Of a stretch of DNA of 64,000 nt, positions 1-3,650 are shown piece by piece; the first letter of the stretch is position 1, and every line of letters starts with the position of its first letter. The notes below the pieces were generated by a model. That model saw nothing but the letters and a program-made list of their open reading frames with translations. It searched no databases and had not been told where the DNA came from. Source of the stretch: an uncultured Bacteroidales bacterium (GTDB taxonomy: Bacteria; Bacteroidota; Bacteroidia; Bacteroidales; VadinHA17); NCBI GenBank assembly GCA_963737255.1, contig CAVTSB010000003.1, positions 1,255 through 65,254 of the forward strand, in the 5' to 3' direction. The position numbers were made by a program, and so were the translations under genes.

Positions 1-354
1 TGGAAAGATAATTTATAAAATGAGCTATTTTCCCTGAAAGATTCAAGCAATTATTCAGTAAATCATTATAAATTTCTTCATTAAAATGCTTTGCATCAAA
101 TGATCTGTAGACCTGAGACCGGGTCTCACCGAGTGAACCTTTAGATATATACAGAAAATTAATAAATTCCTTCTTCCCGTCTCTTTCAAATCCCTCTGCA
201 ATATTATCCATAACTGAACCGCTGGACCTAGAATCTGATCTTTTAATGAAAAGTCCTTCCCTAACGACGTAGTTTCTGCAATTCTTCTGATCTTCTTACA
301 CAATTCTCTGGCTTGCTGCCATACCTCAAGATCTTCAAATCTTTTTATTGTCAT
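1..354 (-). pseudogene. four-helix-bundle protein (23S rRNA intervening-sequence protein family), frameshifted as assembled, 3' end off window
   Basis: The N-terminus [22 protein letters not shown] is typical of the family. After ...KDQIL the family-like sequence [41 protein letters not shown] continues in another frame. The slip is near 228-233, and that frame stays open to position 1. Confidence 0.75.
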
Positions 355-375
355 TTCACTTGCTCTTTATATAAT

Positions 376-430
376 ACTCTGAAACTCTGAAACTCTGAAA
401 CTCTGATACTCTGAAACTCTACACTCTGAT
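376..430. repeat. tandem octamer array (ACTCTGAA) about 6.9 copies
   Basis: Read directly as actctgaa x3, actctgat, actctgaa, actctaca, ctctgat. It fills the gap between the four-helix gene start and the export-gene stop. Confidence 0.95.
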
Positions 431-1199
431 TACTTAAGCACATTCCACATCAACACAAACGTTGTGATCGTACTAAGAATAACTGAATACGGAAAGGCAT
501 TCATCCGGAAAAACTTACCTTTCATCGGCCTGGCATAAATGACATCGTTTGGCATTACATAAAAAAATTCAGAGGCCATAATGCTCCTGTCAGTCAGAGT
601 GAACTCCTTAACTATGTTGCCATCAGGTGTCTGCCTGATCATCTGTATTTTCTGCCTGTTGCTGAATTCGTCAGATCACCTCCCATGGCAAGCGCCTGGA
701 ATATGTTCATCCGCTCTTTGTATATCGGGTATCTGCCCGGACGCTGAACTTCTCCAATAAGACTCACATAGTTATTAACCATCTTTACGGTTACTGCTGC
801 ATCAGCGACATAGCCTTTCAGTATCTTCTCCACTTCATCTGTGACCATGGCCAGGGTTTTTCCGGCTACCATTATCCTGCCGGCATATGGAAGCTGTATG
901 AAACCTTCACCATCCACCGGATAGCTTACCAGGTCGGCACTCTGTTCGGTAACACTGATACTGTATGTTGCAACAGGCATCGTATTAAACATTGCAGACA
1001 ATTGCGGATCGGGGGTCACTACCCTGATAAAGAGGTTATCGTATGGTTGCAGAAGGTAAGCAGGTTGTGCAATGGGCATAAAGACACTCCGGCTATCATC
1101 TGTCTGGAGGTAGGTTAACTTTCTGTTTGTAACACAGGAGGAAAAAACCACTAAAGAGAAAATTGTGATAAGGAAAGGGTTTAATTTCATGAATTTCAA
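430..1199 (-). CDS. polysaccharide export outer-membrane lipoprotein (Wza-like, Poly_export/SLBB), one frameshift as assembled
   Basis: ORFs 639..1199 and 430..642 join across a 1-nt slip near 665-672 (AMGGDLT / EFSNRQKIQMIRQTPDG). It has a lipoprotein signal (VVFSSC) and the motifs PYDNLFIRV and GEVQRPGRYP. Confidence 0.7.
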
Positions 1200-1202
1200 A
1201 TT

Positions 1203-1448
1203 AAGATAAAAGAAAAGTATAAGATAAAAGATAAAAGGGGCCGAGCGTTAAGAAATTGCCCGTGGAGGGCCGAGCGTTAATAAAACACCCTGTGGGAGAT
1301 TTTAGTGAGGAGCCAGATTGCAGGTGGAAGGTAAGATCAAGATAAAAGATAAAAGTCACAAGATAAAAGTAAGGAAGCTAAAGAATTTGCAGAGGATAAA
1401 AGTTGGCGAAGGATAAAAGTAGAGGTGGCAAAAGACAAAAGTACAGGG
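1203..1448. repeat. purine-rich degenerate GATAAAAG/GACAAAAG array (left arm)
   Basis: At least 9 octamer copies are read directly. There is also a 14-bp direct repeat GGGCCGAGCGTTAA x2 at about 1238-1280. Confidence 0.85.
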
Positions 1449-1453
1449 ATTAG

Positions 1454-1741
1454 TTACCTTGTTTTTTGAACGATTGATCCTAATATACTTTTAAGTTCTC
1501 CTGATTCTTTGATTAGAAAGTCAAGGTCCTTTCCATTAATCTCTTTGACAGTTCTTTTAATGATTCGGAGCCAATAATTTGATTCCCTCATTTCGCGAAG
1601 CGAAATCCGTACTTTATTTGAAAAATCAGCCTTAGATGAACCTCCTTGTGATTCTTCATAATTAGCCCCGGATGAACAAGCACTTTTGGATAACTGAGTC
1701 CGGATAGTCTTATTTTCAGGGGAATAAGGCAATGTTTTCAA
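1454..1741 (-). CDS. four-helix-bundle protein (23S rRNA IVS protein family), N-terminally truncated
   Basis: The stretch IRTQLSKSACSSGANYEESQGGSSKADFSNKVRISLREMRESNYWLRII matches the family core. The frame stays open upstream (ERLFEFAVAVIEF) but has no ATG, and the ORF-track start is a TTG. Confidence 0.7.
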   Translation of the reverse strand: MKTLPYSPENKTIRTQLSKSACSSGANYEESQGGSSKADFSNKVRISLREMRESNYWLRIIKRTVKEINGKDLDFLIKESGELKSILGSIVQKTR

Positions 1742-1837
1742 AAATTCAATTACTGCTACCGCAAACTCAAAGAGTCTTTCACAAAGGACAAAAGTGTAAG
1801 AACTAATAACTTATTCACCACAATTTTGAATTGCCCT

Positions 1838-2030
1838 TCTTTTTCACTTTTATCCCCGCCTAAGCGTGATTTCGGAGTTACACTCCTCAACTTTTTGCTT
1901 TTGTCCTTTGTCTTGTTTTTGTCTTGTTCATTCTTCCACTTTTATCTTTATACTTTTGTCTTTTATCTTGTTTTCGTCTTGTTCCTTCTTCCTCTTTTAT
2001 CTTTTCACTTTGTCTTTTGTCTTCCCTCCA
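1838..2030. repeat. pyrimidine-rich CTTTTATC/CTTTTGTC array (right arm, reverse complement of the left arm motif)
   Basis: Read directly. The reverse complement of 1991-2029 aligns with 1203-1240 at roughly 27 of 31 positions. Confidence 0.85.
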
Positions 2031-2639
2031 GGGCATGCTTCCGCCCCGTCAGTCACAACTGAATTTGGATGTAACTATCTATTATTGAAATGGATATGGC
2101 CCTCAGATTGCTCTTCAGGCCATCTTGTTTTAGTCGCTGTAAACAGGTTCAGGTAAAGGTCTCAGAAACTTATATTTCTATGATAAAAATATGTATTCCA
2201 AGTGCTAATGCCAAATTTTATTGGAATCGAAATAGCTTAGTATGGCATAATTTGATCTCATTTTGCTATTCGGAATTGTATTTTAACTATGAAAAGGGCT
2301 TATTTATCTATGAATTAGAAGCGTTTGTCAAAATCCCAAAATAATAAAAATTCAGATTTTCGCTAAAACGTAATAACAGGAAAGCATCCCATGATGCCAC
2401 CCGTTATTACCCAATGAAAGATAAAAAGGCATTGGTAATGTTGCTAACAGGACCCGCTTTGGCCATTTCAGGAGAAAAGGGTTGGAAGCCAGTTTTTTAT
2501 AGCCCGACCGGGAAAGCACGGCACGGCAAAATAGAAGAGGATTATCCGGAAGACTTTGTATGCAATATGCCGGAGATAATTTTTACATAAGGAAATGCGT
2601 TACTAATTTGGCGAATTATAAACATAATGGTATGTAAAC

Positions 2640-3650
2640 ATGAAAAGTAAGGCCAATATTGATTTTATTACTTTAATACTGGGAATAGTATTACTTTTCA
2701 TGAATAGTTGCAGAAAAGAAGAAAATAAAGCCCCTGATGGTCAAATTGTGAGCCCCGCAAATGGTACTGAATTTGAGCAGGAAGATATAGTTACAATTTC
2801 GGTTGTAGCTGAAGATATGGATGGGAGTATTGCAGTAGTACGCTTTTTTATAGATGATACCTATGTTGGTACATCAGAAACAAAGCCGTATACTTATAAA
2901 TGGGATACAACAGATAAAACAACAGGGAATCATATTATTAAGATAATTGCTGTGGATGATGAAGGAAGTACCACTTCCTGTGAAATTTCAATTGTTCTGA
3001 AAACAAGGAACATCGCGATAATTTTTAATCCTGACTTATCATATGGTTCCGTTACTGATATTGAAGGTAATATCTATAAAACCATTGATTATGAAAATCG
3101 GACATGGATGGCAGAAAATCTGAAGACAACCAAATACAATGATGGTACTCCAATCACCTGGGAATCTGGTTTTGCAGCCTGGATCAACAGAACTACTCCG
3201 GCTTATTGCTGGTATGAAAATAACGAAATAAAATACAAAGACATTTATGGCGCTTTATATAACTGGTTTACAGTAGATACTAAAAAGTTATGCCCGACAG
3301 GGTGGCATGTTCCAGACGATTCAGAATGGTATTATACAGCCTATTTCAATGTTGATGTATTAGGAGGCAGGCTTAAAGAAACGGGTACAAGACACTGGGC
3401 CCCTCCCGAATCATACGGTGATCCAATTGAGTTATCAACTAACGAAAGTGGTTTTACAGCTCTCCCAGGCGGCTGGCGGAATTATGATGGTTTTGTATCT
3501 ATTAAACTGGCTGGTAAGTGGTGGAGTTCCACATCTCACACCGAATCTTCAGCCGGGTATGTATCTCTTGATCATAATTATAGTTATTCTGAAGGTAATT
3601 TTACTGACTTTCAGATGGGATTGTCTGTACGTTGTATCAAAGATAATTGA
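2640..3650 (+). CDS. lipoprotein with Ig-like domain and Fibrobacter succinogenes major paralogous (FISUMP) domain
   Basis: It has a signal with Cys (LFMNSC). FISUMP hallmarks are present: WMAENLKTTKYNDGTPI, YGALYNW, CPTGWHVPDDSEW, NESGFTALPGG, WWSST and GLSVRCIKD. Confidence 0.8.
   Translation: MKSKANIDFITLILGIVLLFMNSCRKEENKAPDGQIVSPANGTEFEQEDIVTISVVAEDMDGSIAVVRFFIDDTYVGTSETKPYTYKWDTTDKTTGNHIIKIIAVDDEGSTTSCEISIVLKTRNIAIIFNPDLSYGSVTDIEGNIYKTIDYENRTWMAENLKTTKYNDGTPITWESGFAAWINRTTPAYCWYENNEIKYKDIYGALYNWFTVDTKKLCPTGWHVPDDSEWYYTAYFNVDVLGGRLKETGTRHWAPPESYGDPIELSTNESGFTALPGGWRNYDGFVSIKLAGKWWSSTSHTESSAGYVSLDHNYSYSEGNFTDFQMGLSVRCIKDN

Follow-up and report, generated by a model that had tools for sequence, protein, structure and literature searches.

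Proteins of the family PF05635/TIGR02436 are four-helix bundles (FHB) and go by the name of '23S rRNA intervening-sequence (IVS) protein'. Their relative Avd is a pentameric, nucleic-acid-binding protein. Transposons such as Tn7, Mu, and En/Spm carry iterated subterminal protein-binding sites and have miniature inverted-repeat transposable elements (MITEs) as derivatives. Here we describe two genes of the IVS-protein family, FHB1 and FHB2, and the repeat arrays ("arms") next to them, which together form cassettes 1 and 2 at the start of a 64,000-nucleotide stretch of DNA. This stretch, the window, corresponds to C3:1255-65254, that is, to a part of contig C3 of a 5.1-Mb, 12-contig Bacteroidales metagenome-assembled genome (MAG; G000, this genome).

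Open reading frame (ORF)-bearing rRNA IVS including the Coxiella heptamers, the homology to Avd, inserts in the rRNA of the candidate phyla radiation (CPR), and orphan heptamers have already been published. The helix-45 IVS of Coxiella burnetii, which encodes S23p, contains GACAGAT heptamers and a 28-bp stem that is cut by RNase III, and its RNA was judged more relevant than its protein (PMC4990558). PF05635 is homologous to Avd, the accessory variability determinant of diversity-generating retroelements (DGRs) (PMC10053308), and the family is scattered among CPR rRNA inserts (10.1101/2024.02.27.582315). Orphan heptamers comprise the cyanobacterial STRR and GGGNATC of Xanthomonas and Nostoc (PMC4692102), the four-unit repeats of Geobacter metallireducens (PMC2700814), and TAACTGA of Beggiatoaceae (PMC4679880); a 'four-unit' preference was published for the heptamers of Xanthomonas/Nostoc and Geobacter. 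A literature search revealed no paper linking PF05635 genes outside rRNA to flanking, lineage-specific inverted repeat arrays. In public records such genes are labeled only 'four helix bundle protein' (Nostoc/Anabaena copies).

The region 1-2062 of the window is best described as two worn members of a free-standing class of FHB cassettes with lineage-specific arms, related to rRNA IVS. We consider it probable that they are decaying representatives of a self-recognising class that moves as a unit of gene plus arms and is related to the ORF-bearing IVS. A complete cassette would consist of a gene for an Avd relative of ~120 amino acids between inverted arrays, canonically with five core motifs at 7-nt spacing (31-32 nt). 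Within the region, the minus strand carries two PF05635/TIGR02436 genes separated by a wza-like Poly_export gene (Table 1). For FHB2, the stretch 1454-1741(-) scored 43.4 bits against PF05635 (cut-off 33.8), and the longer frame 1454-1807 gave 77.6 bits against TIGR02436 (cut-off 24) and matched PDB 2rld with an E-value of 7.8e-14. The two frames of FHB1 (C3:1280-1590) reached 62.1 (C-terminal frame) and 26.1 bits against PF05635, and a paralogue on contig C7 matches PDB 2gsc (E 1.5e-14). A first reading of the DNA made without database searches, hereafter the sequence-only reading, had placed both genes in this family and the export gene between them; both assignments hold, the latter through a PF02563 match in 430-1199. 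The four-helix-bundle protein is the sole ORF of the cassette, which contains no catalytic domain from Pfam or NCBIfam. No match to rRNA or any other Rfam family was found in window 1-2700 at E <= 1, and the neighbours are protein-coding; the cassettes therefore lack the insertion in a 23S/16S helix by which rRNA IVS are defined. The proposed likeness to an ORF-bearing 23S rRNA IVS with the rRNA absent is supported.

FHB2 is flanked by a purine-rich tract (1203-1448) and a pyrimidine-rich tract (1838-2030). Local alignment of one arm with the reverse complement of the other scored 23.5, compared to 11.4 (sd 1.7, maximum 19.5) for 500 dinucleotide-preserving shuffles, none of which reached the real value (0/500). 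The enclosure of this gene by complementary arms, noted by the sequence-only reading, is therefore well founded. The best inverted pair joins 1338-1370 to 1938-1970 (33 nt, 88% complementary). When the whole unit was folded as RNA, a check suggested beforehand, the outer arms paired around the ORF (dG -209.8 kcal/mol, z -2.34). Cassette 2 shows both the complementary termini and ORF-enclosing stem of an IVS and the terminal inverted repeats of a DNA transposon or MITE. Two details had to be revised. The unit had been taken for an octamer; since a count at period 8 yielded no chains and a recount at period 7 did, it is the heptamer AAGAYAA, and the last base of 'GATAAAAG', a G, already opens the following unit. 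Likewise, the outermost ~32 bp (1203-1237 / 1991-2023), previously regarded as the terminal inverted repeat, are 76% complementary with three in-phase AAG and represent secondary copies, the primary pair being the inner one with five AAG. The 5' arm contains both the canonical five-unit arm (1938-1970) and the secondary copy (1991-2023). The arms of cassette 2 are long because they were amplified (55-nt module) and invaded (60-nt motif).

FHB2 is 92% identical to a copy from the same genus (G010:C27) and 94% identical to a syntenic copy in another Bacteroidales MAG (L144). Both orthologues start with a GTG within the last unit of the 5' arm, and the protein begins with MEEKKNDLC. Relative to these, the FHB2 frame is broken by a net +14-nt change after that GTG, around 1790-1812. 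No in-frame ATG, GTG, or TTG precedes helix 1 of FHB2, and a complete ORF of ~115-130 amino acids with a start is thus lacking. By comparison with the intact orthologues, the loss of the GTG start in FHB2 is genuine. The earlier view that both first helix and start are missing was correct for the start; helix 1 is mostly still encoded. Situated in the leader of a polysaccharide locus, cassette 2 is a copy that has no start codon and whose arms are amplified.

Eight PF05635 loci are present in this genome, and 8/8 have a short-period array upstream and its reverse complement downstream. The units at the eight loci all differ (AGCTATC, GACTAAGA, GACGGAA, GTCRTGCA, CAGAGTTT, AGTTTGGAGTGAGCTAA, AAGAYAA, and GGCTCAG). 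For relatives of the same genus and the same order, an arm score was determined by aligning the upstream 300 nt with the reverse complement of the downstream 300 nt, and 1500 random windows served as null. Of 55 family loci, 52 scored above the random 99th percentile of 12.5. This survey, which had been proposed as a check on the sequence-only reading, extends the pattern beyond the window.

Chance could in principle produce such a layout if the arrays were slippage-prone low-complexity intergenic DNA, ubiquitous enough for a gene to fall among them. Arrays are abundant: 515 merged Tandem Repeats Finder (TRF) arrays with periods of 6-9 nt cover 21 kb in total, 356 of the 515 are intergenic though only ~12% of the genome is, and most are gene-less. 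Against this stand the inverted partners at 8/8 and 52/55 family genes, compared to arrays on both sides of only 0.9% of all genes (38 of 4130 crude genes, 4 of the 38 being family members). Moreover, the real arm score was not reached by shuffles, the units are lineage-specific and kept across phyla, and some gene-less arrays are demonstrably remnants of cassettes. We regard this explanation as highly improbable, and it was rejected based on the shuffles and the random-window controls. Arms occurring everywhere in the genome had been named as an observation that would undermine the pattern. This holds to the extent that arrays are numerous and mostly gene-less, yet at least some of them are decayed cassettes rather than background; what the gene-less arrays are thus becomes the central question. 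Among the TRF rows, 360 have period 7, and they resemble STRR in being tandem 7-nt repeats, mostly intergenic, and of many sequence families. Many gene-less arrays are back-to-back inverted pairs, and identical units recur at many loci. Co-directional, convergent, and divergent gene neighbours of arrays occur in proportions close to those of the genome as a whole, so that no orientation rule is apparent for the gene-less arrays. Arrays are also found in direct orientation around ordinary genes.

The FHB lineages differ by the type of unit, as exemplified by AAGAYAA, GAAGACS, and AGTGCCTAGAG. A scan with the single FHB2 protein as query, using one genome per species, revealed 80 loci with 62-94% identity. 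Their hosts belong to Bacteroidales, Ignavibacteria, Lentisphaeria, Saprospiraceae, and Chlorobiota and include a Thiohalospira, an Aminicenantes, and others. The loci form at least 24 synteny clusters; true synteny with the window is limited to L144. At least three NNNAAAAG units in both arms and in the correct orientation were found at 57 of the 71 scoreable FHB2-lineage loci, compared to 2 of 80 cassettes from other lineages, and the top units of the FHB2 lineage (GATAAAAG, GACAAAAG, and GTAAAAAG) are identical between both arms. Third codon positions are 45% identical in the 483 pairs of this lineage with at most 75% amino acid identity; the arms of these pairs align (score >= 16) in 74% of cases, compared to 1-6% for controls in the wrong orientation or from far flanks. 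Across all lineages, the 6-mer overlap between the arms of non-syntenic pairs rises from ~0.03 to 0.10-0.20 once protein identity is >= 60%, with no rise in the reversed control. Similarly, FHB1 relatives (40-64% identity) share a unit with a GTTY core, and the lineage associated with imuB/dnaE2 shares AGTGNCTARAG. According to these alignments, the unit sequence in both arms is particular to each protein lineage and conserved within it. Complementarity is therefore not the sole constraint, the unit sequence itself is constrained, and the determinant of specificity travels with the cassette. The encoded protein would be the simplest candidate for this determinant.

Family members with arms of this type also occur on plasmids of cyanobacteria. 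A copy on pNFSY05 of Nostoc flagelliforme has perfect 31-nt arms, (AATTCAA)4.4, and one on pNPUN01 of Nostoc punctiforme PCC 73102 has GTCGGAR arms. On pANACY.01 of Anabaena cylindrica PCC 7122 (L254, 155585-155932), a GTAAAAA-armed cassette lies between cas2 and cas1 on the opposite strand, a position that accounts for the detection of the family in cas loci (PMC3936711). A search of a phage collection gave only one weak match and hence no evidence that phages carry the cassettes.

The arrays have a preferred length. In the FHB2 lineage, the longest in-phase chain most often comprises exactly five AAG (32 of 68 left arms, 36 of 68 right arms). The lengths of all period-7 arrays in this genome peak at 31-32 nt (44 arrays, compared to 4-7 for each neighbouring length), and smaller peaks lie at 24 and 38 nt. 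The published four-unit preference fits this length. G-quadruplex formation is not the reason for it, as these units are rich in A and T. A purine-rich 5' arm is found in 71 of 83 cassettes (p about 2e-11, no phylogenetic correction), so one strand matters. Both relatives of the family in the PDB (2rld and 2gsc) were deposited with five chains; 2gsc is XCC0516, encoded in a Xanthomonas genome with GGGAATC repeats.

A mechanism compatible with these features would start with a pentamer of the FHB protein binding to the five-unit array of its own cassette. We give slightly less than even weight to the proposal that the protein reads the periodic units in the arms of its own cassette, each subunit of a pentamer taking one unit, and that this recognition would underlie maintenance and spread, with host replication or recombination enzymes carrying out the chemistry. 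On read-through transcripts the arms might additionally fold into a long stem which RNase III may cut, as in rRNA IVS; that such cutting makes intergenic insertion harmless, an analogy to the rRNA elements, is conceivable but rather doubtful.

It is unlikely that the arms act at the RNA level only, as a stem through which RNase III removes the insert from the host transcript while the protein is a dispensable passenger, as argued for Coxiella. The arms do fold around the ORF, RNase III is encoded in this genome, the genes are broken in many copies, and for the rRNA IVS of the same family, which are cut by RNase III, more relevance was attributed to the RNA (PMC4990558). Pairing in a transcript, however, leaves unexplained why units are kept within a lineage across phyla although third codon positions have drifted to 45% identity, and why five units are the mode. 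Mismatches between the arms comprise 165 G.U and 203 A.C on the sense strand, and the absence of a G.U excess means that selection for sense-RNA pairing with wobble tolerance is not visible. The direct-orientation arrays around ordinary genes do not fit a stem either. The stem proposed in the sequence-only reading thus does not by itself explain the lineage-kept unit sequences; the observation behind it is confirmed, and the interpretation is supported in part.

Comparison of orthologous sites among relatives revealed filled, empty, and gene-less states. The tRNA-leuS spacer contains gene and arms in G000, G003, G005, G013, and G015. In G031, the flanks of which resemble those of G015, the gene was lost and both arms were kept as a hairpin; in other species this spacer is empty or occupied by different gene-less hairpins. 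The unit at the leuS site is GAAGACS in G000, G013, G015, and G031 and GATGACS in G003 and G005, changed in both arms. Among these orthologues, a change in one arm is matched by the same change in the other, so that whole arrays covary. At the imuB-dnaE2 junction, gene and arms are present in G000, G016, and G018, gene-less hairpins of the same unit family in G008, G009, and G012, and unrelated arrays in seven other species. Empty sites, the search for which had been suggested, were found there as spacers of 0-10 nt in G032 and G004. Upstream of imuB, an intact gene of the same lineage is found in G009, G002, and G012. In this genome, the hairpin at this site (C10:189690-189870) still has the leader and 33 nt from the beginning of the ORF (ATGGAAAATAAAGAGTTTAGCAAGAAGCTTGAG), joined to the 3' arm. 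Internal deletion of cassettes has therefore given rise to at least some of the gene-less hairpins. To judge from such sites, cassettes decay by internal deletion into gene-less hairpins that litter the genome. The SOS mutasome operon imuB-dnaE2 as a whole (C10:189690-191680 in this genome and orthologous loci L090-L108) has one cassette site upstream of imuB and another between imuB and dnaE2, and which site holds a gene and which a solo hairpin varies by species.

Relocation is best seen for the leuS lineage. Its proteins (78-86% identical) are also encoded at G006:C13, between MBL-fold and esterase genes, and in the polysaccharide locus of G010:C27. In a multiple alignment of this lineage, similarity comprises the left array, the gene, and the right array only, and stops at the outer array edges. 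The same element thus occurs at different sites, as for a transposon or MITE: the leuS lineage at 3 unrelated sites and the FHB2 lineage in at least 24 contexts. As judged from these alignments, gene and arms are inherited and relocated as one unit among intergenic spacers.

These site comparisons also bear on the view that the FHB protein is a repressor or RNA-binding regulator of downstream host genes (the polysaccharide locus, imuB-dnaE2, or leuS), with the arrays as iterated operators. Cassettes lie directly upstream of the next gene and are co-oriented with it, the right arm ending 0-45 nt before its start codon; the lineage associated with imuB/dnaE2 is kept across the genus, and lineage-specific units look like operators. 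We nevertheless consider a host regulatory module improbable. One lineage occurs in at least 24 unrelated contexts in several phyla, sites in sister species are filled, empty, or occupied by a gene-less remnant, the genes are often broken, and different lineages are found at one and the same junction (WxcM-wecB in G000 C5 and G131).

The homology between PF05635 and Avd (PMC10053308) would also allow a role as an Avd-type accessory protein of a DGR. No match to the reverse transcriptase domain RVT_1 was obtained in the whole genome, no pair of template and variable repeats is present, and the arms are non-coding arrays. We consider this assignment exceedingly improbable, and it was rejected as the genome is without a reverse transcriptase.

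Several observations weigh against self-recognising, mobile cassettes. Near-identical dispersed copies are absent within the genome, the eight copies having eight different arms, and no target-site duplication is visible at the 3 leuS-lineage sites, the sequences of which have diverged. Searches of Pfam and NCBIfam found no recognisable nuclease, recombinase, or transposase domain in the FHB protein, and five crystal chains are no proof of a pentamer. The z-score of the cassette 2 fold is only modest, and no selection for RNA pairing is visible in the mismatch counts between arms. Most of the 515 arrays have no gene, few were shown to be cassette remnants, and unit families outnumber FHB genes. 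A host factor or a mutational process, instead of the encoded protein, might in principle account for the conservation of arm units, and the counts given above are phylogenetically non-independent. Binding, movement, and RNA processing of the cassettes are predicted from sequence comparison.

We tentatively propose a more general scheme, to which we assign a somewhat lower probability than to recognition of the arms by the protein. PF05635 pentamers would be sequence-specific readers of five-unit heptamer arrays, and the gene with its inverted arrays would constitute a widespread minimal self-recognising mobile cassette. Its decay products would account for the unexplained heptanucleotide repeats of bacteria (cyanobacterial STRR and those of Xanthomonas, Geobacter, and Bacteroidota), and ORF-bearing rRNA IVS would be copies that landed in rRNA.

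The coordinates of the features are summarized in Table 1. In cassette 1, a good 5' arm contrasts with a weak 3' arm. The octamer array that the sequence-only reading had seen on its 5' side was recovered by TRF, and the partner arm lies off the window (C3:1190-1225, TCCCTGAAATCCTGAAATACTGA); the arm score of 10.0 is not above the random 99th percentile. The wza-like gene has an orthologue with 80% identity at L144. At the FHB1 frameshift, CTAGG is found in place of the expected CTAAGG, and at the wza frameshift A4 in place of A5, each apparently one base short in an A run; the essential leuS gene (C7:30262+470 in this genome) has a single shift beside a GGG run. Because of this apparent base loss in short A runs and the similar shift in an essential gene, the FHB1 and wza frameshifts, and that in leuS, are probably assembly errors. 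Of the two genes earlier described as damaged, FHB2 is so through the loss of its start, and the frameshift in FHB1 probably stems from assembly. Pseudogene calls in this genome need care, given such homopolymer-linked shifts in wza, FHB1, and leuS.

Table 1. Features of the region 1-2062, in window coordinates.
Feature	Position	Strand	Description
FHB1, PF05635 gene of cassette 1	1-354	-	ORF ends 28 nt before the window (contig C3:1226); 1-nt frameshift near 228-230
5' arm of cassette 1	376-429	-	(ACTCTGAA)6.9, 8-nt unit (TTCAGAGT in gene orientation), TRF
wza-like polysaccharide export gene	430-1199	-	PF02563, 59.1 bits; ORFs 639-1199 and 430-642, shift in T/A run near 647-650
Outer secondary copy of the 3' arm of cassette 2	1203-1237	-	Three AAG in 7-nt phase on the + strand; 74-76% complementary to 1953-2023
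Insertion within the 3' arm	1238-1335		60-nt dispersed motif (GGGCCGAGCGTTAA..GAGCCAG..CTGCAGG); partial duplication 1238-1255 / 1267-1284; no Rfam match
Canonical 3' arm of cassette 2	1338-1370	-	Five AAG at 7-nt spacing on the + strand (CAAGATAAAAGATAAAAGTCACAAGATAAAAGT); same module in relatives
Degenerate repeat units, canonical 3' arm to stop codon	1371-1448	-	
FHB2 gene	1454-1807	-	118-codon open frame, PF05635/TIGR02436, no in-frame start
5' arm of cassette 2	1891-2023	-	2.4 copies of a 55-nt module (TRF period 55, score 203)
Short motif just beyond the 5' arm	2041-2062	-	TGTGACTGACGGGGCGGAAGCA in gene orientation; common to the G010 and L144 copies

The ~60-nt motif inserted at 1238-1335 (GGGCCGAGCGTTAA-[hairpin]-TTTAGCGAGGAGCCAG-CTGCAGG) is unrelated to the arm repeats and has 6 other copies in this genome (C1:587674-587732, C1:587828-587886, C4:331441-331500, C10:470858-470910, C6:7935-7994, and C6:12989-13048). 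Two tandem copies lie shortly before a tRNA and have its first 11 nt (GCCCGGATGGC) in common with it. The motif adjoins AAGAYAA-type arrays twice in this genome, at window 1238-1335 and at C1:5879xx, and a similar-looking element lies between CTTTTGA and CTTTTTAC arrays in G014.

Further arrays precede the window on contig C3. At C3:36-224, (GTTCAAG)8 is followed 115 nt on by AACTTTGAACTTTGAAC, forming a gene-less hairpin, the unit of which matches FHB1-lineage arms in other genomes (L253, L235, and L234). A SPOR-domain-like gene (C3:469-969) is flanked by AGCGTAG arrays (C3:229-274 and 971-1041) in direct, not inverted, orientation, and the CTCTACGCT unit found around it forms the arms of a second FHB cassette beside the FHB2 orthologue of G010. 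The G+C content of contig C3 is 39.7%, compared to 42.5-43.9% in all other contigs but one (C9, 4.3 kb, 36.6%). The polysaccharide locus opens contig C3, and the nearest relatives of FHB2 outside the genus belong to other families and phyla; contig C3 may be a horizontally acquired region.

Elsewhere in this genome, two further families of repeats are abundant: a 12-mer palindromic array (AATACGTATTAT) occurs at ~30 loci, and arrays of CGCAAAGAA (27 TRF rows, exactly 36 nt) look like parts of a larger hairpin element. At C11:206640-206740, an upstream RND-transporter ORF reads through the 5' array of a cassette and thereby has a repetitive C-terminal tail (..SHASHAGRAGHASHASHASQSN), which implies that arrays can extend or create coding sequence.

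The cassettes would link two puzzles, namely the role of the '23S rRNA IVS protein' family, unknown since the 1990s, and the excess of tandem heptamers in bacterial genomes. If each lineage reads its own repeat, the family would provide a natural set of orthogonal protein-repeat pairs, and the cassettes would represent a new kind of mobile element in which no transposase can be recognised. Assemblies are broken and spurious ORFs created by cassettes and their remnants, which also occur within polysaccharide, imuB-dnaE2, and cas1-cas2 operons; annotators should therefore recognise them. Perfect copies are available in the cultured hosts Nostoc punctiforme PCC 73102, Nostoc flagelliforme, and Anabaena cylindrica PCC 7122.

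Among known systems, the 23S rRNA IVS with an ORF (Coxiella and Leptospira; PMC4990558) share the protein family, the stem-forming terminal inverted repeats that enclose the ORF, the tandem heptamers beside it, the tendency of the ORF to decay, and the proposed selfish or mobile nature. The cassettes differ in lying between protein-coding genes, in having as arms whole arrays of ~five units that are specific to the protein lineage, and in having gene-less derivatives dispersed through the genome; cutting by RNase III, known for the IVS, is only a possibility for the cassettes. Avd (PDB 4DWL; PMC10053308) has a homologous four-helix-bundle fold, whereas the present gene is flanked by its own inverted arrays in a genome with neither reverse transcriptase nor a TR/VR pair. 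Tn7, Mu, En/Spm, and MITEs likewise have element-specific repeated sites inverted at both ends and gene-less internal-deletion derivatives; in contrast, the cassettes carry a single 120-aa protein as cargo, without a transposase or catalytic domain, and neither target-site duplications nor recent multi-copy bursts were seen. The orphan heptamer repeats are similarly tandem, 7 nt long, and mostly intergenic, with a preference for ~four full units and many families per genome. Their published explanation invokes G-quadruplexes or regulation, with no link to PF05635, whereas the units described here are often A/T-rich, which makes a quadruplex impossible, and stand as inverted pairs around a PF05635 gene.

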